Position numbers and translations under genes: made by a program
Assembly (NCBI GenBank): GCA_013151965.1
Contig: JAADHF010000131.1
Location: 46,409-110,408 of the forward strand
DNA from: Spirochaetota bacterium
GTDB lineage: Bacteria > Spirochaetota > Spirochaetia > SZUA-6
DNA: 64,000 bases
Direction: 5' to 3'
Shown here: positions 1,420 to 48,390 of the stretch, in pieces
Numbering within the stretch: the stretch's first letter is position 1
Layout of the letters: every line of letters starts with the position of its first letter
The notes under the pieces: generated by a model
Seen by the model: only the letters and a program-made list of their open reading frames with translations
Told to the model about the DNA's origin: nothing
Database searches by the model: none

Positions 1420-1596
1420 TACCTGCTTTAAATATACTACTAATGCATCTGCTTTTCTATGTTTCTCCCCAATTATTTTATCGGTTTTAATGATAGGATT
1501 TATCATACTAAATAGTGTAACCTCTGTTTTTTGTCGATAATAGTATAAAATAGTAGTCAGATGCAGTTGTGATAGGGATTATAAGGAGATTAAAAA

Positions 1597-4500: not shown

Positions 4501-4614
4501 GCCGGGAAATACTTCGAAGCGCTTGTTATCGTGGAAAGACTGCTCAAAAACAAGAGGAATCAGGGTTATCCTCCTCTTCTCGAATTAAAAAGGAGAATAA
4601 AAGCGAAGATCTGA
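1597..4614 (+). CDS. Large exported helical/TPR-like protein (probable CTG start at 1597; the ORF track starts at GTG 1648)
   Basis: AAGGAG at 1583-1588, in-frame TAA at 1591. CTG 1597 restores the signal peptide MLRINRITILLIILSASVLYHVSAGGQRE. TPR-like repeats (ALAQLNKAIELNPDN). Its stop overlaps the next start (TGATG). Confidence 0.75.
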   Translation: MLRINRITILLIILSASVLYHVSAGGQREKPFDAVDKLMAEKQYNDALSKLTEIARLHPEMMDEVEKRIGEVRSILDNYNSRYAELIKVLFEQHNVGKALKIIKELEDLNPHPNISTLGSLVKAKRGAEVVYNLNRFEEIMNKGLKELKDGLYFDAMKTYIQGFALHREEFQKASYGNIVKNSVEKALSGLRKAVDDFMKSGPEIDRQYTSAALLVSGREPDKFSMEAGRLIAELRKVAVLRNIIYNSALVFDNENKYIKEHSGKNQDDYFLYYAYSVTTGRKTRTEREGILAAIEIYWEEMLGTLTEKVKESAALFLARGKDSFDTAGYTAADTQFKNAYIFYYIYSELTALWEARISTGKDLSVDRGSLKIIEEKLPVYLFAQEKIRETETYRKLGKLLLSLPTTGRVDTASKDIILASREKLSEIKGELAKDKELWKSYEGYYKNVDNLKFDMNIHISDASSMIHRLDTILSEVKQEDVRFVNAYNFIQYNELKEKVKNYSSQYKDAKKLSDGYDIIVETIKDEKGKEVNITRHVQFPSLALQHFNTLGRSINELRGEGDKFLNSIIENEELRVNETEYKKWVGNGTEIMDNVDSLLKELNGAVSKAKELILQAERYKNEGMLRLTQARSELKAEKFSNAKEHIKLSGRAFETSLTYEENGKIRDILDKTLPELSREIVKQENLFVVREVRRFINKGRRFYGLGDFVNAEASFLKAKARWADTNPTENKEITNWLTIVRSALSIKSGREISDNNPLYTEMTQLINLATEDFLRGKELLSKGRKVEALKKLKSATDKLERVRLSFPYNREARVLTLKIQELSDPENFSTSLTKFYNDAVKNFRTKPQEAYADLKDIEEIKPDYPGLKRSIYNLEITLKIRIPPPDPKKIAESNRLYAAAYRIVIKNQVDLFPSALAQLNKAIELNPDNRKAAGLKDRIQIAAGGTVQAVLSSIAQEQYKIAEDKYLAGKYFEALVIVERLLKNKRNQGYPPLLELKRRIKAKI

Positions 4615-7600
4615 TGCGAAATATAAAAATATTATCTACCGTATCTGTTTTCCTCTTTTTATTAACAGCATTAAATGCACAGGATATCTACTGGGAATTG
4701 CCGAAAGCATTTGTTCCCTCCGAAGCAAGATTTCCGATTTCCGCATCAGGCGGAAAAACCGCCGCTGTTCTCTGGCATGAATTTATACCTTCTAAAAAAG
4801 GCGGAGGTAAAGTTTATCTGTCTATCAGTACCAGAACGGAGAAAAGATCATGGAAAAATCATCTGCGTTTTGCCGGACCTTTTGTTTATGAGAGGAACCA
4901 GGCGCCTATCAGTTCCCTGGCTGTAAACAGCAGGGGGGAGATTTATATTGCAGTTGCTGTTAATGAGAATATAACAAGAATATTTTATTCCGCAGACGGC
5001 GGTGAACATTTTAAAATTCTTGCCGATATACAGGCTGTCTCTGTTACGGTAGCTCCGAGATTATTTGTAAAGCGGGACGGCGGGCTTATCCTGTTTGTAA
5101 CACATGAAACCGCCGATTCTCTATCGATCTACTATTCGGTTTCTGCAAACGGCAGAAGCTGGACGAATTTCCAACCCTTTGTAAGAGAAGAAAAACTGTT
5201 TATAAACTTTTTGCCCTATCATGTATCCTTTAAGAACAATGAATATGTCGTGTTTCAATCCGTTACAACGCAAACAATTCGAAATTACCGGTACCAGCTT
5301 TACCTTAAAATCAGCAGGGACGGCGGGAAAACATGGAGCGGTGCGAAACTTCTCGAATTCAAAGAGCATAAGGACGGTAAATTACAGAAACAGGATCAAT
5401 TCTCCAATCAGAGGCCGAATCTAAAGGTTTTCGGAAACAGAATTCTTATGACATGGGAGCGCCAGTACAGGAACCAGCCTCCTCAGATTTATTTTGCAAA
5501 GCTGGATGAACAGGGAAATCTGGCAGGAGAACCGGAAAAGGTTACAGAGGGTTTAAATTCCTGCCATTTCCCGCAGATTATTATCTATAAAAACGAACCT
5601 TTTATTCTATGGTTCGATAACAGGCGGGGTGAAGATCATATTATAATTGCAGGCAAACGGGGATTTAGATGGGAGGATCGTGATATAAGCAGAATTCCCG
5701 GAGAATCGTCGTTCGGAAGGCCTGTGCTGTTAAATAATACCTTATATATATTCTGGGAGAATAAAAGAGGAAAACAGTACAGGGTTTTTTTCCTGGAACC
5801 GGACAAAACGGTTCTCCCGCCTAAAATTATTGCCGAGAATTTTAAACCGGGAAGTATCAGCAACAGAAGTGATTTACGCATAAGATGGATTCTGCCTAAG
5901 GATTCTTCCGGAATTGCCGGTATCGATTATTCATGGAATCCGGGAGCAGAACATCTGATTAAAGATGTATTAAAAATAACCTCCAATAAGAAACAGTCGA
6001 TTACTCTTTATGCGGATAAAGACGGACTGTGGACCTTTAGTATTTCCGCCATGGATTATGCGGGCAATTGGTCGAAGCCCGTATCTGTTTCCTTCATCAG
6101 AGATACTGTTCCGCCGTCTCCGGTAACCTTTGACAGCCTTAAGGTTGATGAAAATGGATTTTTAACGGCCAATACATTTAAAATCGGATGGAAGCCTCCG
6201 AAAAAAGATACTATCAAAGGTTATACATATGTGCTGCAGTACATTGGTTTAAAAGATGAAAATGTCAATCAGGCAAAAATAAAATTTTTATCTCCGCCTT
6301 CCCGCCTCATTACAAGGGAAACCGGTATTTCGTATCGTAATATCGATAATGGTGTATATGCTCTAATGGTATCGGCAATAGATTCCGCAGGAAATATAGG
6401 CAGACCGAATAAACTGATATTTAAACTGAATAAATATATTCCTGTTACATACATAACATATGTAAAAGCGAAAAAAGACGAATTCGATAATGTAAATATA
6501 TCGATAACAGGCAGAGGATTTGCAGAGGGAGGCCTTGTCAGCGAAGTTATACTGGACCGCGATGGGAAAAAACCATACGACTACACCTTTTTAAGATCCT
6601 CCGGGGCATTTAAGGTCGAGAATGACAGGCTTATCGATAAGCTGACTCTGTCTGATATAGAAGAAGGCCTGTACCGTATAGGAGTTATTCATCCCGAACG
6701 CGGACTCTATTTTACGGGCCGTGAATTAAAACTCGAGCCGCAGGGAACGGTTAAATTCGGTTATTTTAATTATAAATATAAATCTCCATGGACCGGGATA
6801 ACACGTATATTATATTTCATCACTTTAAACGAGGTTATTGTCTGGATAATAGTGTTCTTCCTCGCCGCATTAATTATAATTGCGTTTAGAAAATTAATCC
6901 TGATCTTTAATGAAGGGAAACTTCTCAAAAGAGAAATCGGTTTTATTCTATATGAACAGGCTATGCCTGGGAGAAAGGAAAAGAAGATGGCAGAACTCAA
7001 ACGAAAAGGGATGGGGTTACGGTTTAAATTCGTATCTTTGATTATGATTCTGGTTTTTCTCATAGTCCTCATAGTTGCGGTACCCCTCGGATATTATATG
7101 ATAGAAACTCAACGGAAGGATTTAACAACAGGGCTGACTCAGCGTGTCGAGGTTCTCTTAAACAGTCTGGATTCCGGAAGCGCTCCGTATCTGGTTCTAA
7201 AGGATAAGCTGGAACTTGCGAATCTGCCTGATCTTATAAAAGGAATGCCCGAGGCAAAATATGCAACGATAACGGATATGGATGATAAGGTCTGGGCGAC
7301 TAACGATCCGGATATTTCTTCCAGGGTAGAGGGCGGCGAGTACAGACAGTCGGAATCGGTCATTAAAGATGATATATCTCCTTTAGTGCCTGAGTTAGCT
7401 AAGAAAATTAACCGTGAAGCAAGGGATAAAATAACGGCTATTGTAACTGAGATCGACAAATTATCAACGGAAGCGAGGATTTATGCATTAAAGAATGATA
7501 CGGCTTCCAGGCAGAAACTGCTGCAGCTTCAGGATGCAATCGGAATACTCTCTGCAAAAGTTAACAGGGAGCTTCGAACAATAGGAGCAAGGATCAGCAG

Positions 7601-9128
7601 TACCCCGAAATTTAATCCGCAGCATTTAAAATCTTTTTATATCTTTTATAAACCGATTGTACTTCGTCAGCCCAGAGAGGATTTTTACTACCACGGTCTT
7701 GTAAGGCTGGCTATTTCCACGGAGAAGATAACCAATGAAATAATCAGTTCCAGAAATACCCTTGTTATTCAGACAGGAATAATTGCATTGATTGCCACTC
7801 TTTTAGGTATAATCGGAGCCATAATCCTTTCAAGTATTATAATCATGCCGATTAAGAAACTGGCACTGGGTGTGGCTGAAATAAGAGACACAGAGGATAA
7901 GGAGAAGCTTAAAACACACCATATAGACATAAAATCAGGTGATGAAATCGGTACATTAGCCGATACCGTTAATCAAATGACCCAGGCTCTTGTAAAGGCT
8001 GCAATAGCAAATAAGGATCTTATTATCGGCAAGGAAATCCAGAAAATGTTTATCCCCCTGGATAAGGATGAATCCGGCAGAAAAACCAGTACCGGAGGAG
8101 TAATAAGTGATACGGTAGAGATATTCGGTTATTATGAGGGGGCGAAAGGGGTATCCGGCGATTATTTCGATTTTACAAAGGTAGATGATAATCAATACGC
8201 AATCATAAAGTGTGATGTGGCGGGGAAGGGAGTTTCCGCTTCTCTCATAATGGTAGAGGTAGCAACTATCTTTTCCACATTCTTTAAGAGCTGGGATGGT
8301 AAAAACCCGGGCCAGAGTACCGTGGATCTGGTATATCTTATTAATGATATGCTGGAAGAACGCGGATTTAAAGGCAGGTTTGCAGCACTTACCGTTTGCA
8401 TTCTGAACAGTAAAACGGGAAACAGTTACTTCTGTAATGCAGGAGATAATATACTCCATATCTACGACGGTACGGAACGAAAGATGAAACAGCTTTTACT
8501 GCCGGAGGCTCCGGCAGCCGGTGTTTTCCCGTCCATGCTGGTAGAAGCACAGTCCAGTTTTAAGAAGATTATGAACCGGTTAAACAGCGGCGATATACTG
8601 TTTCTCTTTACAGACGGACTTGAAGAAGCAAAGAGGCATTTCAGAAATCAGCAGTTCTCTGTTTCCGTGTGTGATGAGCCGGGGCTTAAAGAAGGAGAAC
8701 TGCACGGCGGGACACATACAGCAGGAAGCGATAATGAAGAGTTCGGAATACCAAGAATACACGATATTATCAACTCGATGCTTAACCGCGGAAAATACAG
8801 GCTCTATAAATATCACAACCCGATAGCGGATGAAGAGCTGAGTTTTGATTTTACCGGATGTGAGGGTAATATAAGAGAAGCCGTATCGGCGCTTATTGCA
8901 ATAGAGAGAATATTCAGGATCTATCCTGATCCCGGTGCAGGAACAGGCGATAGAATTTCCATAGACAGGGGAATTAATGATTTTCTTATGGAGCATTTTG
9001 ATCAATACTCCTTATATTTTACTCACAGGGTAGAGGGAGACGAAAGGGATCAATACGTAACATTTTCGCACTTAAAGGAAGAAGAACAGTACGATGACCT
9101 GACGCTCCTTGCCGTTAAAAAAAAGTAG
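4614..9128 (+). CDS. Membrane sensor PP2C/SpoIIE-type phosphatase: BNR/Asp-box propeller + FN3/Ig-like domains + 3 TM + HAMP + SpoIIE
   Basis: Signal peptide; Asp-boxes YSADGGEHF, VSANGRSW, ISRDGGKTW; FN3-like segments (SAMDYAGNWS, SAIDSAGN); HAMP (PIKKLA...DEIGTLADTVNQM); PP2C motifs VSGDYFD, CDVAGKG, NAG, FTDG, DDLTLL. Confidence 0.85.
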   Translation: MRNIKILSTVSVFLFLLTALNAQDIYWELPKAFVPSEARFPISASGGKTAAVLWHEFIPSKKGGGKVYLSISTRTEKRSWKNHLRFAGPFVYERNQAPISSLAVNSRGEIYIAVAVNENITRIFYSADGGEHFKILADIQAVSVTVAPRLFVKRDGGLILFVTHETADSLSIYYSVSANGRSWTNFQPFVREEKLFINFLPYHVSFKNNEYVVFQSVTTQTIRNYRYQLYLKISRDGGKTWSGAKLLEFKEHKDGKLQKQDQFSNQRPNLKVFGNRILMTWERQYRNQPPQIYFAKLDEQGNLAGEPEKVTEGLNSCHFPQIIIYKNEPFILWFDNRRGEDHIIIAGKRGFRWEDRDISRIPGESSFGRPVLLNNTLYIFWENKRGKQYRVFFLEPDKTVLPPKIIAENFKPGSISNRSDLRIRWILPKDSSGIAGIDYSWNPGAEHLIKDVLKITSNKKQSITLYADKDGLWTFSISAMDYAGNWSKPVSVSFIRDTVPPSPVTFDSLKVDENGFLTANTFKIGWKPPKKDTIKGYTYVLQYIGLKDENVNQAKIKFLSPPSRLITRETGISYRNIDNGVYALMVSAIDSAGNIGRPNKLIFKLNKYIPVTYITYVKAKKDEFDNVNISITGRGFAEGGLVSEVILDRDGKKPYDYTFLRSSGAFKVENDRLIDKLTLSDIEEGLYRIGVIHPERGLYFTGRELKLEPQGTVKFGYFNYKYKSPWTGITRILYFITLNEVIVWIIVFFLAALIIIAFRKLILIFNEGKLLKREIGFILYEQAMPGRKEKKMAELKRKGMGLRFKFVSLIMILVFLIVLIVAVPLGYYMIETQRKDLTTGLTQRVEVLLNSLDSGSAPYLVLKDKLELANLPDLIKGMPEAKYATITDMDDKVWATNDPDISSRVEGGEYRQSESVIKDDISPLVPELAKKINREARDKITAIVTEIDKLSTEARIYALKNDTASRQKLLQLQDAIGILSAKVNRELRTIGARISSTPKFNPQHLKSFYIFYKPIVLRQPREDFYYHGLVRLAISTEKITNEIISSRNTLVIQTGIIALIATLLGIIGAIILSSIIIMPIKKLALGVAEIRDTEDKEKLKTHHIDIKSGDEIGTLADTVNQMTQALVKAAIANKDLIIGKEIQKMFIPLDKDESGRKTSTGGVISDTVEIFGYYEGAKGVSGDYFDFTKVDDNQYAIIKCDVAGKGVSASLIMVEVATIFSTFFKSWDGKNPGQSTVDLVYLINDMLEERGFKGRFAALTVCILNSKTGNSYFCNAGDNILHIYDGTERKMKQLLLPEAPAAGVFPSMLVEAQSSFKKIMNRLNSGDILFLFTDGLEEAKRHFRNQQFSVSVCDEPGLKEGELHGGTHTAGSDNEEFGIPRIHDIINSMLNRGKYRLYKYHNPIADEELSFDFTGCEGNIREAVSALIAIERIFRIYPDPGAGTGDRISIDRGINDFLMEHFDQYSLYFTHRVEGDERDQYVTFSHLKEEEQYDDLTLLAVKKK

Positions 9129-36239: not shown

Positions 36240-39200
36240 TTGAAAAAGATTATTTTAATTCTGATCGTATTATTTACTCCGAACCTCCCTGTTTTTACGG
36301 ATGCTGTTGTCCAGCCGGAGAAGGAAGCTCCTAAAGTACTTTTTAAAACCGATATAACCGGAGCCGATGTTGATTTTTACATGAGTGGTTCATGGACCTC
36401 CAGCCTTTTTATGGGTTCGGGCGTTCTGTTTCAATCCGGTTATCTTCCCAGAATGCTTGATTATTTTCCGGGAAGCGATACCGGTTTTATATTCGAAAAT
36501 ATACCCGATTTAACTTTTTCCGTATATCTGATGAAAAAGTATTTTCTCGAACTCAGTGTTTTAAGTGATTTTGAAAAAAACTCTTTTCTTATGGGGTATA
36601 AAGACGAAGATAATAACTTTTTAAATTATCTCTATATCGGAAACAGGGATATACGGAGCGACCCGTATCCTTTTATAGAAATACCGGATGCCGGTAATTC
36701 TTCACTGGGAATAGAGGCCGGACTGCATTCCGGTAATACTGCAGAACATCATCTTATGCTGAGATACGATTCCAATGGAACGGGGATAAAGTATTTTTTA
36801 GGGATGAACGAAGTGCAGGAGGAAACTATCGATGTAAAGGATTATATCCGCGGTAAATATTTTTTTATACCCGATACCGATGTCGAGGATTTTACATTGT
36901 ACCTATCCGATCCCGGAGGCTCATATACCGGTTCGGACGGTTTCCGTTATCGTAAAGCCGGGCCCGATGATTATATTTTAAATAATCATGCAGGAACATT
37001 ATCTTTAAAAAAGGATTTTAAAGGAAAGGCTGCAGTGTACTATACTAAGAACGGATATCCGGTGGGGGACGCCGCTATCGGCAGGGGCGGACTTCCCGGA
37101 GTAAACGGAAATGAACCGGATGCCGGTTATCCGCCTGTCGATTTTAACTGGAACCTTTCCGGTTACCCTGGCGGGAATATGGCATCCCGTAAAGTAACCA
37201 TAAACTCTGAAAATAGTCTTTTGCTCTGGGATAACGGGAATTTTACACCATTTCTGGACTGCAGTAACTATAAAGTGACAGAGGGACTGCCGGAAAATTC
37301 GGAAAATGCAAGGGTGCGGCTTGTTAAGAGGGACAACAGGTATGAGAAGGCGGAGGTCTCCGCATCGATCAGGTTCAGCCTCAATGCGCCGGATAGTACG
37401 ATTACAGCACACAGAACGGATAAAAATACTGCTGCAGGCAGGGATTTTTACGCCTTCTTCCCTTTCCCTGATCCCGGTTATAATATTTATACCCCGAAAT
37501 CGATTCCTGACTCGGATAAACCCGAGTATCAAATTCTTGTTATGGTTCTGCAGCCTGTTACTGAGTATATACTCGAGGATAACATTATTCCGGGTTCAGT
37601 GCATGTCCTTAAAAACGGTATGGAGGAAACACGGTTTAAGGTCGATTATGACAGCGGAAAGATAAATTTTACAACAGAGATATTCCCGGACGATTTTATG
37701 GAGATCAGGTACAGTAAGGCGGGTATTTCCGAGAAGGGAGGCGACCTGATATTTGACTGGGGGAATACCATTAAACTCTCAGAAAGTATATTGCTCCGGT
37801 TCGCTACGGGGTTCCGCTGGAATATTTTGTCCGGCACATACACAGAAAGTGAGTTCGCAAAAACCGGCAGCATGCTTGTATCGGCGGGGCTTTCGGAAAA
37901 GAAAAAAAATTATGATTTTAATCTGTCTTTGGGAGCAGGGTATTCTGTTCCCGATACTACCGGGATATTTCGCATAGAGGGGATGGAGGGTACCGGCACG
38001 GATGTGGAAATCGACGAAAATAATATATACCCTTCTTCCGTTCCTTCGGATATTTCCGGTTTAAGCCGGACAAACCGGGGCAAAATTCTATATAAAGATT
38101 ACAGGAGTTACGGTTCCTTCGGTTCCGTAACTCTGCATTACTATGAAGATCCCATCCCGGCTGATCAGGAATATGCATATACGTCCGGTTCCAAACCGGG
38201 GCCGTATATCGTGGGAGGAAGTTCTGCGGGCAAAAGCGGGAAAAGTATGGCCATCGATTTTGATATGGATACTTTAAAGGAGTGGGTCGGTGCGCAAATA
38301 CCCATGGGAGGAGGTAATCCGCCGGACCTCTCTTCCGCCCGGTCGGTATCTCTCTCCTTCAAGGTGTTTAAGTTAAGCGGGAATGTCCGAATGTACCTCG
38401 AAATAGGGGAGACCGGTGAAGACCTGGACGGCGACGGAATTCTCGACCGTGAACAGATGGAAAGCTCAAAGGGTTTTGAGTTTAACGATATCAGTAATAA
38501 CGCTGTTCTCTATGTAGGCGGAGGGCCCAGGATGGAGGGTAACGGGAAGATTGATTCGGAAGATTTAAACAACAATGGTTTTCTCGATCCGGATAATCCC
38601 GCCCATATCGTGTCCGTTACATCCGGCGGATCCGCGGATATTCTTCTGCTCGATTCTCCTGCGGATCAGTGGATAAAATTCACCCACAATTTTTCGGAAG
38701 CGGAAAGGGAAAAGCTGAAGAACGCAGGATCGGTACGTATTGTTGTCGTAAAACAGTCGGGAGATACGGCGGATGGTGTTATTCTGATAGATAAAATAAC
38801 ATTTAACGGCTCTCCCTTCTGGCAGAAGGCAGACAGCCCGGGAGAAGTAACCGCCCAGGAGATAGATGAGAATTATTCGGCATACCTTCCTTCGGCTGAT
38901 CTGGAAGATTCTTTTACCGAAGTTAAGAGTATCTTTCATCCTCATGGCGAACGGCAGAAGATTCTGCAGATTACATGGAACTCCGTACCTGCCGGCGGAA
39001 GCTGGACTGTGGGAAAATATTTAAACAACGTTATTAATAAAGTTATGTACAGCAGGCTGGTCTTTTATCTAAGGGCTGCTTCCATGGATAATTCTCAGGA
39101 TGCTGTTTTAAGCATCGGGGTTGTCGATACGGGGGGAAGGGGCATAACCATAGGTTTTAAAGGGAATATTCTGGCTCCGGGAATAGATTCTCCATGGAAA

Positions 39201-41096
39201 AAAGTGGAAGTCGATCTCGGGGATGGTACCGTACTTATAAACGGACAAAAGACGGAATCGACTGTAACGGTAGATCGGACTTACAATTCTCTGACGGAGC
39301 TTAAGATAAGCTGCACAAATTCTTCTTCCGGAGCCCTGTACCTGGATGAATTTTCATTCAGGGAATCAAAAGGATCATTCGGGGCTGCCTTGAAAGCAGA
39401 CATGAATTATAGAATTCCCGGAAAAATATTATCCGCAGGCGGTGTGGATATTCTGTCGAATATAATCTTAAAGGAGCGTCTGTACTCGGCAACTCCGGGA
39501 TTTTCGCCTGTTTACGGCATTCCGGAAGATGCTTTTAAGTTATATTCATTTTCGGAAGTTTCTTTTTCCGTTAACGCCCTTTCGGTTTATTTTAGTATTC
39601 TTTTCGATGGAAGCGGCAGTTCCGACTGGCGTGAGCTGAGCTATTCCATTGCCGGAAGTCACAAATTAACACTTCCGGTACAATTTCTATATACAACGGT
39701 AACGGACAGTTTTTCTAAGAAAACGGGAGAGCAGGGAATATCGATCTACAAGGAAGACTCTGTTATAACCTCTCTGCCCGGATTGGCAGCTTTAAAAGCG
39801 GGAATCAACGATAATGTTTATGCAGGTCTGCTCGATCAGAAATGGTACGGCGGCATGAATTTTAATCTTCTAAATCCATTTACACTGTCCGCAGATATTG
39901 AAATAGAAAAATCCTTTGCCGGCTATTCGGCTGAGGATAATGACTATTTCTCCGCATGGACAAAGAGTTTTACCTATATTGTCCCGTATATTTCAGATCA
40001 GGAAACGAACAGAAATGTTTCTCTGAATAATCGAATGGGTCTTGCAACCGAACCTGCCGGAATAAACATAACGGCGGACATAAGCTCAGAATGCAGCAAC
40101 CTGCTGACAATGGACCGGACTCAGGAGAATACGGTACATTTGATGCTGGAAATTCCGCTTAAGATATTCCCGGACAGCAGTACACCCGTATCGATTATTC
40201 CGGGGTACAGCCGTGAACTTAAGCTTACAAGCGGTAAACAGGCGGCAGGTAATTTAAGCGCTGATCTGGAAAAAATAAAGAGTGATATTATGTTAAACAG
40301 TTATGTCATAACGGGAATACCGTTTTTAGAGATTACAGGCCCGGATCTTAAGAATCTGTTTTCTTCGTTAACCGCTTCCTATGAAAAGGCAAGTTATATG
40401 CCCGGTTTTTCAGTAAATTTTTCACGTAATTACAGTTCAAGGATTATCGATCTGATTCTGCCTTCCATGCTGAATGTCTATGGGGGAAGAAAGCTTGTAA
40501 GGAACTTCGACACCATGCAGGATATGTACCTGTTAAGCTTAAATCTTAAGTCCACAGCTATTAATCTTTTCGGGAAATTAGGTGCATATCCCTTTTTTAG
40601 CTTTTACAATTCGGACGAATTCGGCAGTTCGCTTTTCCTGGACATGGATTTAAATGATAATTATAGTATAAAAACCTACAGCTTAGCGATCGGGCATTAC
40701 ATGAGTCTCTATGGAAAGGATAAGAATCTTCTGACACTCAAAAACAGGTTTAAAGTAGAAGATCAGGCGGAAAAACGTTATGCGGATTCCGCTGATATTT
40801 CATTTACCTGGAACGTAAAACCGGAAGAAGGAATAGAGCTGCCCTATGTGCCGAATAAATTCTTAAAGGAGAGTTTTATCAGAAACATCGAGGAACTGAC
40901 ATTCAATACGGATGGATCCCACCCGGTTACCCTCATAGCCTCGCATGAATCTTCATTTGTTATGCCGGATTACGGTCATGTCAAATTTAATACGGGAATA
41001 GGATTCGATTATGAGTATTCGGATAGTAGTGCTATTGCACGCAGGGCTTTCAGGATTTTTATAAAGGGAGGAATAGAAGTAAAGATAAGCTTTTAA
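36240..41096 (+). CDS. Very large outer-membrane protein, SprA/Sov-like
   Basis: Signal peptide; SprA-like motifs in SprA order (DYILNNHAGTLSL, IIPGSVHV...FKVDYDSGKI, IEGMEG, RGKILY, WVGAQ, YLEIGETGEDLDGDG, DSEDLNNNGFLD); C-terminal EVKISF. Confidence 0.65.
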   Translation: MKKIILILIVLFTPNLPVFTDAVVQPEKEAPKVLFKTDITGADVDFYMSGSWTSSLFMGSGVLFQSGYLPRMLDYFPGSDTGFIFENIPDLTFSVYLMKKYFLELSVLSDFEKNSFLMGYKDEDNNFLNYLYIGNRDIRSDPYPFIEIPDAGNSSLGIEAGLHSGNTAEHHLMLRYDSNGTGIKYFLGMNEVQEETIDVKDYIRGKYFFIPDTDVEDFTLYLSDPGGSYTGSDGFRYRKAGPDDYILNNHAGTLSLKKDFKGKAAVYYTKNGYPVGDAAIGRGGLPGVNGNEPDAGYPPVDFNWNLSGYPGGNMASRKVTINSENSLLLWDNGNFTPFLDCSNYKVTEGLPENSENARVRLVKRDNRYEKAEVSASIRFSLNAPDSTITAHRTDKNTAAGRDFYAFFPFPDPGYNIYTPKSIPDSDKPEYQILVMVLQPVTEYILEDNIIPGSVHVLKNGMEETRFKVDYDSGKINFTTEIFPDDFMEIRYSKAGISEKGGDLIFDWGNTIKLSESILLRFATGFRWNILSGTYTESEFAKTGSMLVSAGLSEKKKNYDFNLSLGAGYSVPDTTGIFRIEGMEGTGTDVEIDENNIYPSSVPSDISGLSRTNRGKILYKDYRSYGSFGSVTLHYYEDPIPADQEYAYTSGSKPGPYIVGGSSAGKSGKSMAIDFDMDTLKEWVGAQIPMGGGNPPDLSSARSVSLSFKVFKLSGNVRMYLEIGETGEDLDGDGILDREQMESSKGFEFNDISNNAVLYVGGGPRMEGNGKIDSEDLNNNGFLDPDNPAHIVSVTSGGSADILLLDSPADQWIKFTHNFSEAEREKLKNAGSVRIVVVKQSGDTADGVILIDKITFNGSPFWQKADSPGEVTAQEIDENYSAYLPSADLEDSFTEVKSIFHPHGERQKILQITWNSVPAGGSWTVGKYLNNVINKVMYSRLVFYLRAASMDNSQDAVLSIGVVDTGGRGITIGFKGNILAPGIDSPWKKVEVDLGDGTVLINGQKTESTVTVDRTYNSLTELKISCTNSSSGALYLDEFSFRESKGSFGAALKADMNYRIPGKILSAGGVDILSNIILKERLYSATPGFSPVYGIPEDAFKLYSFSEVSFSVNALSVYFSILFDGSGSSDWRELSYSIAGSHKLTLPVQFLYTTVTDSFSKKTGEQGISIYKEDSVITSLPGLAALKAGINDNVYAGLLDQKWYGGMNFNLLNPFTLSADIEIEKSFAGYSAEDNDYFSAWTKSFTYIVPYISDQETNRNVSLNNRMGLATEPAGINITADISSECSNLLTMDRTQENTVHLMLEIPLKIFPDSSTPVSIIPGYSRELKLTSGKQAAGNLSADLEKIKSDIMLNSYVITGIPFLEITGPDLKNLFSSLTASYEKASYMPGFSVNFSRNYSSRIIDLILPSMLNVYGGRKLVRNFDTMQDMYLLSLNLKSTAINLFGKLGAYPFFSFYNSDEFGSSLFLDMDLNDNYSIKTYSLAIGHYMSLYGKDKNLLTLKNRFKVEDQAEKRYADSADISFTWNVKPEEGIELPYVPNKFLKESFIRNIEELTFNTDGSHPVTLIASHESSFVMPDYGHVKFNTGIGFDYEYSDSSAIARRAFRIFIKGGIEVKISF

Positions 41097-41157
41097 GGAA
41101 TTTGCAGGGATTTTCGATTATACTGATGCCGGCAGGACTAATTTATTCTAAAAATAT

Positions 41158-41186
41158 TGGAAGATTAGCGGGAAAGGTGTTATAAT
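41158..41186 (+). promoter_or_regulatory. Strong sigma70 promoter of the beta-barrel gene pair
   Basis: TTGGAA, 17 nt, TATAAT with TGn extension; AAGGAGG RBS before 41215. Confidence 0.65.
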
Positions 41187-41214
41187 ATACTTAAAGATTT
41201 ACAAGGAGGTTCTT

Positions 41215-42576
41215 ATGACAGGCAAAGTAAAGTTATGGAGCTTATTTGCACTTTTAGCGATTGTTCTGATTTCTCCGGTCTTTTCTGTGGAAACTGAAAA
41301 ACCTTTTAATATGGGTATGTCTATGGTTATCGGTACCCAGTCCTTTGTGGAAAACGGGAATACCGTTACATATCAGAAGTTAAGCTTTAATCCCGATATT
41401 TCATTCGGTAAAATCGGAATAGGCCTGGATGTGACACTGCACTACAATTTTACAGGCGGAGCAGGTAATGAATTCTCCGTTAGAAAGGCGGACTGGGTTC
41501 CCGAGCCTTTAACCTTTTCCAATCTTCTGGGACTATACCTGCCGCTTATACGTTATGTGCGGTACGGAGTAAAGGGAGATCCTCTTTATGCTAAGTTCGG
41601 GTCCATTAACGATGCAACTCTCGGCAATGGATTTATTATGGGAAATTATTCCAACACACTGCTGCTTCCGGAAAAGAGAATATTCGGGCTTACTTTTGAC
41701 TTAGACGGATCATTGTTTAATTTTCCGCTTATAGGATTCGAGAGTGTAATCGGCAATCTTGCCGTACTCGATGTTGTCGGTGCAAGGCTCTTTGTAAGAC
41801 CCTTTGTTTATACGGAGATACCGATTGCAAAGAATCTGCAGATCGGTGTGACCTTTGCCGCGGATACGAATGTATATGCGCAGTCTCCCGGCCTGGATAC
41901 CGATACGGGTATTCAGGAAGGTATTGCCGCATTCGGAACTGATTTCAGGCTGCCCCTGCTGTCCAATCCTGCTGTTTCGCTTGCCACTTACGGCGATCTT
42001 GCCTCTATAGCAGGGAAATCAGTGGGAGGAATGCTCGGCTTCGGCGGTAAACTGATAAGTTTTTTGACCTACGGGGCACAGCTCCGCATACTCGGAGCTG
42101 ATTTTATTCCGGATTACTTTGATTCTTCGTATGATCTGTTCCGGACTGTTAAATACCAGTTAATTACAGAGAACGGCGGAATACCCGCATTTGTCGGGTG
42201 GTTTGCAAGCATCGGAACATCCTTTCTCAAGGATAGTATTGTTTTTAATATAGGTGTGGAAGGTCCCTTCGGTGAAGCTGCCGGAAATGATCCGGACAAT
42301 ATCATGAATTATCCGCATCTAAGTGGTATATTCGAAATTAAGAACAATATTTTGCCCGGTTTTTCCTTTGATGCGAGTTACGACAAGAAGTTGATAAAAA
42401 CATGGAGTGATCTTGTGAGTCCTGAAGATGCAGTGATAAAGGCACAGCTCAACTATCAGACAGGGCCTGCAATGATTTCTTTTGTGTACAGGATAAAGTA
42501 TATTCCGGATGCTGCACCAGGTGAAAATCAATGGGCAATCACCTCGGGACTGGAAAGTTCGATCCAGTTATTCTAA
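41215..42576 (+). CDS. Predicted outer-membrane beta-barrel protein
   Basis: Signal peptide, alternating hydrophobic strands throughout, C-terminal SSIQLF. Confidence 0.75.
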   Translation: MTGKVKLWSLFALLAIVLISPVFSVETEKPFNMGMSMVIGTQSFVENGNTVTYQKLSFNPDISFGKIGIGLDVTLHYNFTGGAGNEFSVRKADWVPEPLTFSNLLGLYLPLIRYVRYGVKGDPLYAKFGSINDATLGNGFIMGNYSNTLLLPEKRIFGLTFDLDGSLFNFPLIGFESVIGNLAVLDVVGARLFVRPFVYTEIPIAKNLQIGVTFAADTNVYAQSPGLDTDTGIQEGIAAFGTDFRLPLLSNPAVSLATYGDLASIAGKSVGGMLGFGGKLISFLTYGAQLRILGADFIPDYFDSSYDLFRTVKYQLITENGGIPAFVGWFASIGTSFLKDSIVFNIGVEGPFGEAAGNDPDNIMNYPHLSGIFEIKNNILPGFSFDASYDKKLIKTWSDLVSPEDAVIKAQLNYQTGPAMISFVYRIKYIPDAAPGENQWAITSGLESSIQLF

Positions 42577-42592
42577 CGATTTGGAGGTTTCT

Positions 42593-44824
42593 ATGAAGAA
42601 GATAGTTACAGGTATTGTTTTTATTTTACTTTTAATGCCGGCGGTCCTGATTTTCGCTCAGGAGAAAAAGACTCAGAGTACACAGGCTTCGGCTGTTCTG
42701 GAATACTTCGAGGATTCGAGCGGAGCACTTCGTCTTGTGGAACCGGACGGAACGGAACTTTACTCGTCGGATCTTTACTTCGGGTTCGAGATCCCGGTAG
42801 GTTCTACCGTTGTCACGGAGGCTGCGGATTATGCCGAACTCCAGCTCGATCCAAATGGTTCCATTATTAAGATTTCCGAAAATACTAACTTTAAGTTAGA
42901 GGGTCTTCAGGCAATGGACGGCTCGGGAGAAAATGTTTTTGCCATAGCCGTCGGCAAATTCCGGGCTGTTGCGGCGAGGGCTACCGGCAGCGAGAAGTAC
43001 ACCTTTAAGGGGCCCTCTACGGTTGCAGGTGTACGCGGAACCGACCTCGGCATGGAAGTACTTCCCGGTTCAGAGGAGATTGCATTTGTAACACAGGGGT
43101 TAATAGACTTTACCGATAAAGCGGGAAAAACCATCGCAATCGGTGCGGGCCAGATGGCCAATGCCCTTGCTCCGACCTTCGAACCTGTTAAGATACCGGC
43201 TGATATGCTTGCAAAGCTTATGAAAGGGCTCGATTTTAAGAAGCTTAATCCTAAGAAGGTACCGGGACACCAGGGTGCAGCAACTCCGCCTAAGGAAGAG
43301 GCTAAAAACGCAGAAACGCCTCCTCCCGCACCTCCTGCGGAAAAGAAAGCGGAGGAGAAGAAAGCTCCTAAAGCGCCTGCAAAAAATGCTTTTATGCAGG
43401 GTTTGTTCGATAAACTAAAAGATATGCTCGGCATGGAGATAGGCTCTGTTACTATCGGTGATACGACCTACGCAAAAGCCGTTATTCAGCCGCAGTTTAC
43501 TATCGGCAAATTAAAGATGGCTCTGTACCTGCCTATTATTTACGAATCTAATATGCTGGATCCGAATGACTGGTATCACCCGGAAGGAAACGATGAGTGG
43601 TCTTTCGGAACGGATCAGAACGGATTTAAGGCTGTGGCGGGAGATTTCATAAATGACCTGTTTTTAAAGATCAAGTATGTGGAATGGGGTAAACAGAGGG
43701 ATAAATTCTTTTTTAAGATAGGAAACTTAAACGATATCACCATCGGACACGGTCTTATAATGAAGGATTATGCAAATGATTCGGACTTCCCGGTGATACG
43801 CAGAGTAGGTTTAAACCTGGGCATGGATTTTGAGAAAATCGGTTTCGAAGCCATGGTAAACGATATCGGCGATCCTCATATATTCGGCTCCAGGCTGTAC
43901 TTCCGGCCCATAGCACCGGCTTTTCCCATGGCGGTCGGGATGACTGTCGTAACGGATATAAGTCCTGCTTCCGATCTTCCGGATCCGTCTACTGTGGGTA
44001 ATCCTATTATTTTAAACGGAGGTCTGGATCTGGACTTTCCTGTTATCGAAACGGACCCCTTCAGCATAATTTCCTATGCCGATGTCGCGGGAATGATGCC
44101 TGTGTTCAGGAACGCAGTTCCCGGTACTTCCATCACTTCAGGTCCCGCCCGGGACGCAATGTTTGCGGAAGATATAAACGGAAACTTCGCATTAAAGAAC
44201 TGGGGTTTTGCAGCCGGATTGTTCGGAAGAGCCTTTATTCTCGACTGGAGGCTGGAATACAGGAACTTTAACGGTGCATTTAAACCTGCATTCTACAACC
44301 AGCTCTACGACAGAACGCGCGGTCAGTATGTAAATGATATTATTACGTACCTGGAGAACCAGAACGATCCTGCATATGATGTACAGACTATGGGGATATA
44401 CGGAGAAGCCGGTTTTACAATAAAGAAGGTATTCAGCTTCGACGGCAGCTACTTCTGGCCCTGGTACACAGACGAAAACGGGGACATAAAGATGGGCGAG
44501 GATGATTTTCTTCACCTCAAGGCTACACTGGAAGCGGGTGTAATACCTGTTGTAAATGTTTCGGGATCGGTATCCTATGACAGGACGAAATTTATGCCGA
44601 CCCTTTTGGGCAGCGGCAATCCTGCGGAAAACTTAAGCCTCTTCGATGCAAATACGGTTGTAACAGCAGAGATCGTTTATCCGGTAGCACCAACACTCGA
44701 TGTTGCCCTGCTCTATACGACTGCTCTTGCCCGTGATGCGGACGGTAATGTACTGTATAATGAGATAACCAATAATCCCGAAATTGCAACTACCGTGAGC
44801 ATAGAGACCAGGATTCACTTTTAA
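42593..44824 (+). CDS. FecR domain + Pro/Ala/Lys/Glu linker + beta-barrel paralogous to the upstream gene
   Basis: GGAGG before ATG 42593; FecR (DPNGSIIKISENT, TVAGVRGT); linker PPPAPPAEKKAEEKKAPKAP; barrel ending ETRIHF. Confidence 0.8.
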   Translation: MKKIVTGIVFILLLMPAVLIFAQEKKTQSTQASAVLEYFEDSSGALRLVEPDGTELYSSDLYFGFEIPVGSTVVTEAADYAELQLDPNGSIIKISENTNFKLEGLQAMDGSGENVFAIAVGKFRAVAARATGSEKYTFKGPSTVAGVRGTDLGMEVLPGSEEIAFVTQGLIDFTDKAGKTIAIGAGQMANALAPTFEPVKIPADMLAKLMKGLDFKKLNPKKVPGHQGAATPPKEEAKNAETPPPAPPAEKKAEEKKAPKAPAKNAFMQGLFDKLKDMLGMEIGSVTIGDTTYAKAVIQPQFTIGKLKMALYLPIIYESNMLDPNDWYHPEGNDEWSFGTDQNGFKAVAGDFINDLFLKIKYVEWGKQRDKFFFKIGNLNDITIGHGLIMKDYANDSDFPVIRRVGLNLGMDFEKIGFEAMVNDIGDPHIFGSRLYFRPIAPAFPMAVGMTVVTDISPASDLPDPSTVGNPIILNGGLDLDFPVIETDPFSIISYADVAGMMPVFRNAVPGTSITSGPARDAMFAEDINGNFALKNWGFAAGLFGRAFILDWRLEYRNFNGAFKPAFYNQLYDRTRGQYVNDIITYLENQNDPAYDVQTMGIYGEAGFTIKKVFSFDGSYFWPWYTDENGDIKMGEDDFLHLKATLEAGVIPVVNVSGSVSYDRTKFMPTLLGSGNPAENLSLFDANTVVTAEIVYPVAPTLDVALLYTTALARDADGNVLYNEITNNPEIATTVSIETRIHF

Positions 44825-44844: not shown

Positions 44845-46554
44845 ATGAGCGATAGGAAGGATTCTTCCCGGAGAATAATTGTTCTCCGGGAAGATGTTTC
44901 ACGAAAAATTGCGGCCGGCGAGGTAATCGACCGGCCGTTTTCTGTTGTCAGGGAGCTTCTGGATAATTCTCTGGATGCCGGGAGTAAGACCATAGATCTG
45001 TATCTGTACGGCGGGGGAATCAGGGAAATACGTATCGTAGATGACGGTTCGGGGATGAATAATGAAGATCTTAAAATCTGCTGCCGCCGCCATACCACGT
45101 CGAAGATTGTCGAAGAGGATGATCTTTATAAAACTGATACGCTCGGATTCAGGGGAGAGGCGCTTGCAAGCATTGCCACATGTTCCAGGCTGGAGATTAT
45201 CAGTTTTGCAGAAGATTCAAACCATGCAAACCGCCTTGTTGTACATGGCGGAAAGCTGGTTTCCCTGGAAGAACATGCGGGGAAAAGAGGGACTTCGGTA
45301 CTGGTCTCCGACCTCTTTTTTAATATGCCTGCGCGGAGGCGGTTTTTAAAGAGCACATCGTCGGAAACCTATATGTGCAGGTCGATTTTTGCGGACAGGG
45401 CTCTTCCCTTTACCGGTGTTGCCTTCCGTATGTTCATAGAAGATAAAATGAGGTACTTTTTTCCTGTGCAGGAATTAAAAGAGAGGGTATGTGCCGCGTA
45501 TAAGGATGCCGTTAAACCCTCACTTCTTGCCCTGTTAGATACGGAGACGGAAGATTTTAAATTAAAGATTGTAATGGGGGACCCTGCACTTGCAAGGAAA
45601 GACAGGAAGTTTATTCAGATCTTTGTAAACGGCAGAAGAGTAAGCGATTATTCGCTTATGCAGGCTGTCGAATATGCTTATACGGGCTTTGTGCCCGGAG
45701 GCTATCATCCTGTATGTTTTGTTTTTTTAAATGTAAATCCGGAACTCGTAGATTTTAACATTCATCCGGCAAAAAAAGAAGTAAAACTGAAAAATATTTC
45801 TTCTTTAAGGCAGGGTATTATCGGGCTTATAACAAAACATCTAAATATTCCGCTTTATCAAGGTGTCAGCCCTGCACCCGGTCGTATAACGGATCAGGAT
45901 AATCTGTTTAAGGTGTTTAAGAAAAGCAGCGGAACATGGGAAAGGACAGGTTCGGACAGTCTTTTTACCGGCAGAATGCAGCCGGAGGAATATCCGCCCC
46001 CCTCTGTTGATGAAGATATTAAATACTTCGGGCAGGTATTCGGCCTTTTCTTAATCGTCCGGAAGGGAAATACCGTACTGTTGATAGATCAGCATGCAGC
46101 ACATGAACGTATTATTTTTGATGAATTAATGGAAAAGCAGTACAGCTCCCAGAAGCTTCTGATACCCATCGATTTTTCCGCTGACAGGGTAGAAGCGGCT
46201 GTTATAGAACGGAACCTTCCGGTTTTAATAGAGCTGGGGGTAGAACTGAAGAGAAAAGAAAATGGGAGATATATAATAGAATCGATGCCGGAGGATTTTC
46301 TTATTCTGGAAGCGGAAGAGGTGGTGCGGTTTATAAAGGAGGATCAGGGCGATCAAAACAGGGTAAAACGTGAAATAATGGATGCCCTGGCCTGCAGGCT
46401 TGCTGTTAAAGACGGAGACCGCCTCGACGATATAACGGCAGTCGAATTACTGCGGAAGGCTCTGCAGCTTAAAGACCCGAAATGCCCGCACGGAAGGCCC
46501 ATATGGTTTTCCGTAAGTAAAGATGACCTGCTTAAGTTTGTTAAGAGAAAATGA
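44845..46554 (+). CDS. mutL: DNA mismatch repair endonuclease MutL
   Basis: IAAGEVIDRP, ELLDNSLDAG, TSKI, GFRGEAL, NIHPAK, DQHAAHER, ACR, CPHGRP. Confidence 0.96.
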   Translation: MSDRKDSSRRIIVLREDVSRKIAAGEVIDRPFSVVRELLDNSLDAGSKTIDLYLYGGGIREIRIVDDGSGMNNEDLKICCRRHTTSKIVEEDDLYKTDTLGFRGEALASIATCSRLEIISFAEDSNHANRLVVHGGKLVSLEEHAGKRGTSVLVSDLFFNMPARRRFLKSTSSETYMCRSIFADRALPFTGVAFRMFIEDKMRYFFPVQELKERVCAAYKDAVKPSLLALLDTETEDFKLKIVMGDPALARKDRKFIQIFVNGRRVSDYSLMQAVEYAYTGFVPGGYHPVCFVFLNVNPELVDFNIHPAKKEVKLKNISSLRQGIIGLITKHLNIPLYQGVSPAPGRITDQDNLFKVFKKSSGTWERTGSDSLFTGRMQPEEYPPPSVDEDIKYFGQVFGLFLIVRKGNTVLLIDQHAAHERIIFDELMEKQYSSQKLLIPIDFSADRVEAAVIERNLPVLIELGVELKRKENGRYIIESMPEDFLILEAEEVVRFIKEDQGDQNRVKREIMDALACRLAVKDGDRLDDITAVELLRKALQLKDPKCPHGRPIWFSVSKDDLLKFVKRK

Positions 46555-46560
46555 GTTTAA

Positions 46561-48390
46561 CTATAATCCCTGAAGCAGCTTGTTGACATCGTCCTTTTTG
46601 GCGTATCCGGGATTCTTTTTTAGAAGGGTTGTCAGAAGAGATTTTGCAGTTTTTTTATCACCCTTCTTAATAAGCAGGAGTGCAAGCTGATAGTATGCAT
46701 CCCAGTAAGCGGAGTCTATCTTTATGAGTTCGGAGAAAACCTGCAGAGCCTGGTCTGTCCGGTTTAATTCCAGATAGGATAATCCTAAATTGTATCTCGG
46801 CAGTGTGGCATCGGGTTTTAATGCTATTGCACCGGACAGATGTTTTATGCTCTGCTGATACAGACCTTTATGGAGATAGACATTGCCGAGGTTGTTGTTT
46901 ACTTCGTAGGAACCCGGGGCTATTGCATATGCCTTTGTCAGGAGCGGCAGGGCTTTATCGTATAATCCGTTATCATCGTATATCCTTGCCAGATTGATTC
47001 TCGGTTTAATATAGGTGTCATCCATCCGGATAGCATCGGTATAGTACTTGATTGCCTGGTTCTGCTTCTTAAGTTTTTCATACACAAGGCCGAGGGTATA
47101 GTTGAATTGAGCCGAATTCGGGTTATTCTGTACGGCTTTTTCAGCGTACTGCAATGCTGCCTGCGGTTTATCGACTTCAAGTTCTACATTGGCCAGATTA
47201 TAGTTTGTAACGGCGTTGTCCGGATCGATGCTGAGAGCTTTTTTAAAGTACCGTTCCGATTCTTTAAAATCCTTCCTGTTAAAGAGAGCGGTTGCATAGC
47301 TCCTTAAAAAAAACGGATTCTGCGGTGCATAGGCAACGGCTCCGGCAAAACTTTTAGCTGCAGCGTTTATATCACCCTTAGAGGAATAGATAACTCCGCG
47401 TTCGTAGTAAGCCTCGGAGAAATCCTTCTTATAGCGCAGGGCAAGATCAAAGGCTTTCAGGGCCTTATCCTTATCGCCCAGTTTTACTAGTGTCTTCCCG
47501 ATTCTGAAATGAGCCTGGGGATAATCCGGTTTTAAATGGATACAGCTCTTAAAGGACTGCAGAGCATCGGAGTACTGCCCTGCATAGTACTGCATTTTAC
47601 CGAGTGAGTAGAGAATGGAATAATCTTCCGGATTTAACCTCGATGCCTCTTTATACTCCTGAATTGCATTATCATAATTCTTGGTCTGCTCATATATCTT
47701 TCCCAGGGTTTGATGAGGCAGCCACAGCGAGGGATCTTTCCGTATTGCCTTTGAGGAAGCTTCTATCGCTTTCTGAATATTGGCAGGATCTCCGGATCTG
47801 TCTTTAAGGTATGATACTCCGAGATATGCATAGGCTTTCCCCGACTCCGGATCAAGTTCCAGCACGGAATTAAAAGTATTACGTGCATCGGAATATTTTT
47901 TGCTGTTGACTTCCTTGATTCCCCTGGACATCAGCTGATTTATGCGGTTTATTTTCTCTTTTTCACGTTTGGAAGCGTTTTCGGGTACTTCGCGTGGTTT
48001 TTCCTTTATTGCGGTTTTTACGGGAGTTTTCTCCTGGATGGATTCGCTAAGCCGGGAAAGACTCTCCTTCAGCTGTTTCTGCTGCTGCGTCAGAGCTTTT
48101 TCCTGCTGTTTCAGGGCTTCTTTCCCGGCCGCTTTCTTTTTATCTATGATCTGATCCAGTAGAGTTTTTGCTCCGGGGTTATCCGGGTTTTTAATTAAAA
48201 GACCGTCCAGGAGCTGCATGGCTCTGTCGAATTCTCCCTTATTCATATATTCCTGCGCCAGTTTCAGCGTATTAAGCTCTGCGGTTATCCCGGCCTGTTT
48301 TACCTGTTTGTTATGCAGAAAGAAAAAAAACACTGTCAGTGCCAGTATAATAATAACTGCCGCTATAGTAATTATAATTTTTTTACCCAA
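46561..48390 (-). CDS. Membrane-anchored multi-TPR protein (architecture and position recall Borrelia Lmp1)
   Basis: N-terminal TM, coiled region, more than 10 TPR repeats; convergent with mutL. Confidence 0.85.
   Translation of the reverse strand: MGKKIIITIAAVIIILALTVFFFFLHNKQVKQAGITAELNTLKLAQEYMNKGEFDRAMQLLDGLLIKNPDNPGAKTLLDQIIDKKKAAGKEALKQQEKALTQQQKQLKESLSRLSESIQEKTPVKTAIKEKPREVPENASKREKEKINRINQLMSRGIKEVNSKKYSDARNTFNSVLELDPESGKAYAYLGVSYLKDRSGDPANIQKAIEASSKAIRKDPSLWLPHQTLGKIYEQTKNYDNAIQEYKEASRLNPEDYSILYSLGKMQYYAGQYSDALQSFKSCIHLKPDYPQAHFRIGKTLVKLGDKDKALKAFDLALRYKKDFSEAYYERGVIYSSKGDINAAAKSFAGAVAYAPQNPFFLRSYATALFNRKDFKESERYFKKALSIDPDNAVTNYNLANVELEVDKPQAALQYAEKAVQNNPNSAQFNYTLGLVYEKLKKQNQAIKYYTDAIRMDDTYIKPRINLARIYDDNGLYDKALPLLTKAYAIAPGSYEVNNNLGNVYLHKGLYQQSIKHLSGAIALKPDATLPRYNLGLSYLELNRTDQALQVFSELIKIDSAYWDAYYQLALLLIKKGDKKTAKSLLTTLLKKNPGYAKKDDVNKLLQGL

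Follow-up and report, generated by a model that had tools for sequence, protein, structure and literature searches.

In a 64,000-nucleotide stretch of DNA from a Spirochaetota bacterium (assembly GCA_013151965.1, contig JAADHF010000131.1; hereafter the window), the product of one gene, A (36240-41096, +), is, on a two-step profile link and a predicted structure, a genuine and strongly diverged homologue of SprA, the giant outer-membrane barrel of the T9SS (type IX secretion system). SprA, the channel through which this system conducts proteins over the outer membrane, is the equivalent of Sov of Porphyromonas gingivalis. Our preferred reading, to which we give a probability of about 0.6, is that A is a retained SprA-type channel that would rely on another signal, another carrier and another source of energy, UPF0164/PorV-like barrels being the most plausible carriers, and that the two genes behind it, B and C, encode a semi-autonomous pair coupled to A in those lineages that have short forms of A.

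The T9SS is called specific to Bacteroidetes or to the Fibrobacteres-Chlorobi-Bacteroidetes (FCB) group in passages of three papers (PMC10994853, PMC7463736, PMC12398890), and the relevant passage of the survey by Abby et al. (2016) records its presence for 60 of 97 Bacteroidetes genomes and for none of the other clades (PMC4793230). According to sections of PMC10994853, the SprA barrel has 36 strands, the C-terminal domain (CTD) of a T9SS substrate attaches to PorV loops projecting through the lateral opening of SprA, and the PorV-substrate complex is afterwards pulled out with energy supplied by the GldLM motor. Our full-text searches, in which SprA or T9SS was paired with the names of spirochaetes, found no literature on SprA homologues in these bacteria; for Leptospira only the top match was opened, and the matching word there was "Sprague-Dawley".

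Genes A, B and C are three co-directional open reading frames (ORFs; 36240-41096, 41215-42576 and 42593-44824, all +), found at the positions given by a first-pass annotation made from the letters of the window. A starts with TTG and encodes 1618 aa ending in ...EVKISF, and B encodes 453 aa. For C, the ATG at 42593, which is preceded by GGAGG, was favoured over the start at 42509 and gives a product of 743 aa. The gaps are 118 nt between A and B, 16 nt between B and C, and 20 nt between C and mutL (44845-46554), which lies directly after C. All three products have a signal-peptide-like start and Phe as the last residue, as the first-pass annotation had read; the signal peptides were recognized by eye from the hydrophobic N-termini, no predictor being used. 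A is a single-copy gene in the 3.6-Mb genome, and the sole genomic paralogues of B and C are each other.

The members of the A family are about 1550-1690 aa long, come from spirochaetes and are annotated as "hypothetical proteins". Word-indexed searches with A retrieved nothing beyond close relatives from spirochaetes, none of them with a Pfam domain apart from P0026, which carries IMS/DNA polymerase IV domains, and A alone matched nothing in the Protein Data Bank (PDB) by sequence. The connection to SprA was made in two steps, using an alignment of 20 relatives of A (A1) and an alignment of 22 long spirochaete forms (A4). The A1 profile searched against the PDB gave only noise (Frizzled-3, E ≥ 0.069). 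When compared by hhalign, A1 and A4 matched with a probability of 100 and an E value of 2.7e-85 over 995 columns, covering A 41-1097. The A4 profile, searched against the PDB with HMMER, matched Flavobacterium johnsoniae SprA (6h3j_A and 6h3i_A) at E 6e-43 (6.1e-43 for 6h3j_A), with two significant stretches, SprA 165-883 and SprA 990-1531. The SprA model TIGR04189 also matches the long forms L036 (1.6e-21) and L038 (5.2e-18), both of which were also found by the A-family query P0001. L036 alone matched nothing in the PDB, and SprA_N was not found when five long and short forms were searched against Pfam. A further lead came from the Atlas, where SprA_N is present in 12% of the members of a 1623-aa cluster near the homologue P0022. 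For the C-terminal third of A, hhalign gave a collinear match to the long forms that was weak (E 0.0068, probability 5.6) and was not used as evidence.

The first-pass annotation had proposed A as a shorter relative of SprA/Sov on the basis of motifs compared with SprA strings. All eight quoted motifs are present in A in the order given (residues 244, 449, 466, 579, 613, 682, 719 and 772), and the SprA strings correspond to real segments of SprA, as EYTFNPQLGYISL, GSVVV...DYSVDYQLGRV, VDDFEGS and IYFNLGEISEDV occur in the same order in 6h3j_A in its HMMER alignment to the long-form profile. Together with the two-step profile link, the SprA-specific fold match of residues 41-1200 bears that proposal out.

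The structure of A was predicted with AlphaFold for residues 1-1200 from a 40-sequence alignment, and the model has a mean predicted local distance difference test (pLDDT) score of 85.1 and a predicted template modelling (pTM) score of 0.78. In the Foldseek search of this model against the PDB, a check that the first-pass annotation had suggested, the four SprA chains ranked first (8gl8_A, 5.9e-40; 8gl6_A, 1.7e-39; 6h3i_A, 4.6e-35; 6h3j_A, 3.1e-25) with TMq values of 0.46-0.62, and the next match outside SprA had an E value of 1.3e-5. A VIA search placed residues 41-1200 of the model onto SprA 132-1760 (8gl6_A) with Z 23.2, a root-mean-square deviation (rmsd) of 5.6 Å and 980 aligned residues, compared with Z 16.4 and 305 aligned residues for the best chain other than SprA. 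Such a likeness of the predicted fold and of the profiles to SprA exceeds by a wide margin what chance would give. The possibilities that A is an LptD, an usher or a TonB receptor were considered and rejected, since they were backed only by Foldseek E values of 4e-4 or above or by about 300 aligned residues.

DSSP assigned the long strands of the model to three blocks, 42-223, 486-570 and 1046-1199, with insert domains at 236-480 and 585-1045 between them. The first long barrel-type block, residues 42-223 (36363-36908, +), corresponds to the part of the long forms that matches TIGR04189 positions ~73-260. Residues 236-480 (36945-37679, +) form small inserted beta domains that hold the motifs DYILNNHAGTLSL and IIPGSVHV...FKVDYDSGKINF; these motifs align with the matching conserved segments of SprA through the A1-A4 and A4-SprA alignments, and the domains would belong to the cap. 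The second block, residues 486-570 (37695-37949, +), has five long barrel-type strands. It is followed at residues 585-1045 (37992-39374, +) by jelly-roll domains resembling carbohydrate-binding modules (CBMs), with the acidic, D/E-rich loops YLEIGETGEDLDGDG and DSEDLNNNGFLD, for which calcium binding is putative. This region corresponds to part of the SprA cap. The third block of barrel strands, residues 1046-1618 (39375-41093, +), was modelled up to residue 1200 and has eight to nine long DSSP strands in 1046-1199. Counted by hand from the DSSP strings, the barrel blocks of residues 1-1200 contain about 23-24 long strands, and a crude amphipathicity scan called 17 segments in 1201-1618; the same scan finds seven segments in 1046-1199, where DSSP has eight to nine strands. 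A total near the 36 strands of SprA is therefore plausible, and the C-terminus of A is a typical barrel terminus.

Compared with F. johnsoniae SprA (6H3I, 6H3J, 8GL6 and 8GL8), A thus shares the fold of residues 41-1200, the order of the conserved segments, the signal peptide, the barrel blocks split by folded insert domains and the C-terminal aromatic residue. The two proteins differ in length (2403 aa for SprA, 1618 aa for A), and their identity in structural alignments is about 10-12%. Unlike SprA, A lies below detection by TIGR04189 and PF14349, the former giving no match in its genome even at E ≤ 10 and the latter none.

The genome that carries A (94.3% complete, 143 contigs) was searched for other components of the T9SS; the first-pass annotation had proposed a candidate T9SS-like system. 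The type A sorting domain TIGR04183 gave no match there; as the same model matches 73 of 151 genomes of the phylum, the search for CTDs works. The PorV model NF033710 also gave no match in this genome, and it matches all five CTD-rich genomes tested. The type B CTD model TIGR04131 produced only matches below its cut-off that lay inside two ORFs and not at the C-terminus. These ORFs, at G000:C44:42947-46993 (1349 codons) and G000:C19:6971-9010 (680 codons) of the genome of A, have two internal sub-threshold matches each, which are probably repeated immunoglobulin-like domains and not sorting signals. Two apparent components were rejected: the single GldL match is a methyl-accepting chemotaxis protein, and the GldK matches span only positions 218-405 of the 408-position model, with 28-88 bits against a cut-off of 350 bits. 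The GldK model also matches Bacillus subtilis, Caulobacter and Methanosarcina, and we take positions 218-405 to be its formylglycine-generating enzyme (FGE)-sulfatase domain. A T9SS-like system in this genome was thus not borne out, as the searches for CTD cargo, PorV proper, PorP, GldM and GldN found none of them (no search was made for PorU, PorW/SprE or Plug), and the same apparently holds for the whole class.

One PorV-related barrel does lie in the window. The ORF at 187-1506 (-), which the first-pass annotation had also named, encodes a real PorV/PorQ-family-like protein of 439 aa with a C-terminal tetratricopeptide repeat (TPR) tail. It matches UPF0164 (E 5.3e-45), PorV_fam (E 8.5e-20; 71.6 bits, under the cut-off of 90) and PorQ (7.7e-8). 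UPF0164 is presumably the "FadL-like" family of Treponema. Among the carriers with the PorV/PorQ/FadL fold this is the relative present in the window and the only PorV-like barrel near A, at a distance of 35 kb. A second weak PorV_fam match was observed outside the window, at G000:C1:26529-26618. A PorV/PorQ-family barrel is also noted in part of a preprint on Brachyspira.

The distribution of SprA-like proteins was surveyed in 401 genomes of the phylum Spirochaetota, representing 153 genera. The A-family query P0001 found homologous ORFs, from 1137 aa to about 2100 aa, in 106 of the 401 genomes and 59 of the 153 genera, with E values for the long forms down to 1e-40. TIGR04189 matched 137 of the 401 genomes at E 1e-4 to 1e-30, none of the matches to long forms exceeding its 200-bit cut-off; its matches are the same ORFs as those of P0001, about 1850-2340 aa long, and occur in only one genome of the class of A. 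These long Spirochaetota forms are homologous to A by hhalign, as given above; unlike A, they match the SprA model, many are in CTD-bearing genomes and most are not beside B-C.

Of the 73 genomes with TIGR04183 matches, 67 have one above the curated cut-off, and eight CTD-rich genomes (G004, G020, G034, G046, G058, G069, G079 and G105) have from about 20 to at least 35 matches each. The long SprA-like ORFs of 1850-2340 aa share genomes with CTD genes, and in each of the five CTD-rich genomes tested for PorV there are 11-42 ORFs with partial likeness to PorV, about 320 aa in length; some of these lie beside CTD genes. A T9SS-like export system therefore seems to be present in deep spirochaete lineages, and the combined data suggest such an outer-membrane system outside the FCB group. 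The class of A looks like a reduced derivative of it; the closest relatives of the genome of A, G030 and G094, have one marginal CTD match each (E 1e-4 to 8e-4). PorU was not accepted in the CTD-rich genomes, as its model matched only its own CTD part. The GldM model matched one of the 151 phylum genomes, weakly, namely a 538-aa ORF of G011 (G011:C19:7557-7856; E 2.6e-5 to the N-terminal part of the model, positions 27-123). This ORF may encode a divergent PorM/GldM, and the same genome contains CTD genes and a long SprA-like ORF.

Two unusual forms of the SprA-like gene were also observed. In genus g2 (L044 from G015, together with G042, G065, G085, G166, G205, G215 and G284), a short form of 1137-1146 aa matches A at ~47-548 and ~1232-1505 and is without the middle (cap/jelly-roll) region. 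In family f2 (L041, L042 and L043 from G250, G054 and G275), the SprA-like frame opens with a complete DNA polymerase IV (DinB) sequence. One database record of 1868 aa is named "DNA polymerase IV". The arrangement is either two genes in one stop-free frame or a real fusion.

B and C were described as paralogous by the first-pass annotation, and this was confirmed by blastp (30.5% identity over 154 aa, E 4.6e-17) and by the B-family profile, which covers C residues 277-743. B had no sequence match in Pfam or the PDB and only a weak one, to ImpL63, in NCBIfam; its profile gave only noise in the PDB (E ≥ 0.43), and C matched nothing there. An exhaustive HMMER search found B relatives in 965 representative clusters at E ≤ 1e-3, and its closest clusters in the Atlas are Spirochaetota clusters without names. 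The model of B, predicted from an alignment with 70 relatives, has a pLDDT of 93.8, a pTM of 0.88 and about 20 strands. Its best Foldseek matches were OccK2/OpdF and AlgE (E 2.5e-8 to 1e-7, TM 0.30-0.40), and in an unbiased VIA search Tom40, OccD2, OpdQ and VDAC were tied at Z 13.7-14.5. The best structural matches of B are OprD/Occ and AlgE barrels, with 18 strands, and Tom40/VDAC, with 19; the likeness is generic, with an rmsd of 5-6 Å, 8-12% identity, tied rows and no Pfam match to OprD or AlgE.

The first-pass annotation had treated B and C as accessory barrels that might partner A in the manner of the FadL-fold barrel PorV, and in this respect it was not followed. PorV (6h3i_F) and FadL scored Z 9.2 and 9.3 for B, compared with 14.5 at the top, and the PorV/PorQ models of NCBIfam matched neither B nor C at E ≤ 1. 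PorV-type barrels have 14 strands according to part of a preprint (10.1101/2025.01.03.631275), whereas B is predicted to have about 20. With this strand number, its best matches among Tom40, Occ and VDAC and its low PorV score, B is, in its predicted fold, a porin-like barrel of no described family and not a PorV analogue. ImpL63, whose model matches B and C weakly and far under its cut-off, was used as an inner-membrane-associated marker in a section of PMC2698987; B, unlike ImpL63, models as a barrel of the outer-membrane type.

C combines a signal peptide, an N-terminal FecR/LipL45/Lsa33-like domain (residues ~28-180), a linker and a B-like barrel (residues 277-743; nt 43421-44821, +), the last of which aligns with B-profile positions 34-449 at G000:C1:89829-91229. 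The matches of the N-terminal domain are weak: FecR (PF04773) was found at E 2.4e-4 with 21.9 bits, under the 24-bit cut-off, and the Leptospira FecR-domain proteins Lsa33 (1.8e-8) and LipL45 (7.7e-6) were matched in NCBIfam far under their cut-offs. The linker, read from the translation, is rich in Pro, Lys, Ala and Glu, and the tethered FecR-like domain is probably periplasmic. The B-C pair is probably a separate outer-membrane channel module of its own.

Twenty loci around A homologues were fetched to compare gene order. A, B and C are adjacent in eight of them (L031, L032, L033, L035 and L046-L049), with mutL next in five of these eight. Across the survey, the coordinates of A and B-C were compared by hand among the matches listed, which makes the counts minimum values: a B gene, usually accompanied by C, comes immediately after A in at least 16 genomes drawn from two or more classes (G000, G332, G380, G230, G323, G030, G094, G210, G022, G155, G148, G106, G134, G007, G048 and G120); in G034 a C-type gene alone is behind A. 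The linked forms of A are the short ones, of about 1570-1810 aa. In L048 and L049, which are from another class, the other neighbours differ and only A, B and C remain together. A and B-C are more than 100 kb apart on a single contig in G016, G031, G317 and G080, and in G160 and G281 a stretch of at least 7 kb downstream of A contains no B-C. In about 20 other genomes A and B-C are on different contigs, which settles nothing about linkage. The B-C pair itself occurs in 213 of the 401 genomes, mostly with two matches each, and the rows checked among the matches listed are adjacent B-type and C-type ORFs. As B-C is repeatedly encoded directly behind A in short-form lineages, it may cooperate with A there, but it is not an obligate SprA subunit.

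Since the classical partners were not found, A is most likely a retained translocon with another signal, carrier and energy source. As we picture it, A would convey folded proteins from the periplasm to the surface of the cell or into the medium; its export signal, its carrier and its energy source would all differ from those of the classical T9SS, and UPF0164/PorV-like barrels such as the product of 187-1506 would be the most plausible carriers. B and C would make up a channel pair of partial autonomy, coupled genomically and perhaps functionally to A in the short-form lineages.

Several results weigh against this reading. Direct family models gave no SprA match to A at E ≤ 1 in Pfam or NCBIfam, and SprA_N (PF14349) matched none of the 20 close relatives of A. 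As the model of A ends at residue 1200, with 418 residues left, the closure of the barrel, the total number of strands and the lateral opening fall beyond its 1-1200 scope. A translocon function would also need a cargo signal, a carrier and an energy source, and none of these was identified. The GldM, GldN and PorP/SprF models each gave no match in the genome of A and had no positive control, since GldN and PorP matched no genome here and GldM only the one described above; their silence is therefore weak evidence. With regard to the coupling of B-C to A, the co-occurrence of the three genes in related genomes, whose absence the first-pass annotation had named as a refutation, was found in part. 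The adjacency described above stands, and the genes also occur apart: all 75 genomes of family f20 carry B-C (distant matches, E 1e-14 to 1e-20) and none of the 75 gave an A with either query, and in family f2, A-like genes are present in 22 of 50 genomes and B-C in one of 50. In the class of A, moreover, the whole neighbourhood (ComFB ... A-B-C-mutL-TPR ...) is syntenic, so adjacency may merely reflect a conserved chromosome. A promoter-like site (41157-41186, +; TTGGAA, 18 nt, TATAAT with an upstream TG) inside the 118-nt A-B gap may give B-C-mutL a promoter of their own; in the scan of the locus for promoters and terminators, the total number of sites was not above that in shuffled sequence.

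The separate occurrence of A and B-C in f20 and f2 also counts against the proposal that A, B and C form a single dedicated machine, in which a SprA-type translocon would have accessory barrels of its own as gate, carrier or plug, as do their separation by more than 100 kb in four genomes, the two genomes without B-C downstream of A and the fold of B, which is neither PorV- nor FadL-like. In favour of such a machine are the adjacency of the three genes in 8 of 20 loci and in no fewer than 16 genomes from two or more classes, the intact A-B-C order in L048 and L049 where the other neighbours changed, the confinement of the linkage to short forms of A, and the tethered N-terminal domain of C, which could reach the periplasmic mouth of A. 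On balance we regard the single machine as a possible but minority explanation. A related and somewhat more doubtful version is a minimal SprA-type channel in Spirochaetia without a GldLM-type motor or CTDs, which would work with B-C (the FecR-like domain of C serving as gate or adaptor), with UPF0164 carriers or with both, and which would have its route from an ancestral Spirochaetota T9SS.

It is unlikely that A is a SprA-derived barrel that no longer translocates proteins and instead uses its CBM-like cap as an adhesive or glycan-binding barrel at the surface, or as a large porin. In the VIA search, residues 571-1046 of the model matched CBM11, CBM27, CBM30 and CBM4 at Z 11-13, with an rmsd of about 3 Å and about 150 aligned residues; the failure to find a cargo signal, carrier or motor in the genome of A and the natural form of about 1139 aa without the middle region in genus g2 also fit this explanation. 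However, the jelly-roll region aligns in the profile comparison with the SprA cap itself (990-1531), so the CBM-like domains do not discriminate it from a translocon, and the barrel blocks of A are conserved across the phylum. Least probable is a complete classical T9SS with A as its translocon and with the remaining parts either too divergent to be detected or located in sequence that was not assembled, because, for all the incompleteness of the assembly, the uncontrolled GldM, GldN and PorP models, the PorV/PorQ-family-like barrel at 187-1506 and the marginal CTD matches of G030 and G094, the CTD and PorV models work on other spirochaetes and yet find nothing in this genome, and the CTD-rich spirochaetes are themselves without GldM apart from the one weak match in 151 genomes.

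Further genes of the window were recorded. Convergent with mutL, a gene at 46561-48390 (-) encodes a 609-aa protein with an N-terminal segment resembling a hydrophobic helix and many TPR repeats; it is kept in place in L031, L032, L033, L046 and L047 and not in L048 or L049. At 4614-9128 (+), a 1504-aa protein has weak matches to an OmpL47-type beta-barrel domain, to histidine-kinase models and to SpoIIE, and its ORF is adjoined by an unannotated 988-aa ORF at 1648-4614.

The SprA-family barrel is widespread in Spirochaetota, and some deep lineages of the phylum also carry abundant sorting-domain cargo, while the class of A keeps a slimmed SprA without a detectable rest of the system. This amounts to a natural experiment on the requirements of a SprA-type translocon. 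B-C represents a large unannotated outer-membrane family, with its 965 representative clusters, and A is a concrete knockout candidate for the question of how spirochaete surface and secreted proteins cross the outer membrane. If a minimal SprA without motor or CTDs does operate in these bacteria, it would be a new route of export or surface assembly and one candidate explanation of the way in which some spirochaetes get proteins onto their surface.

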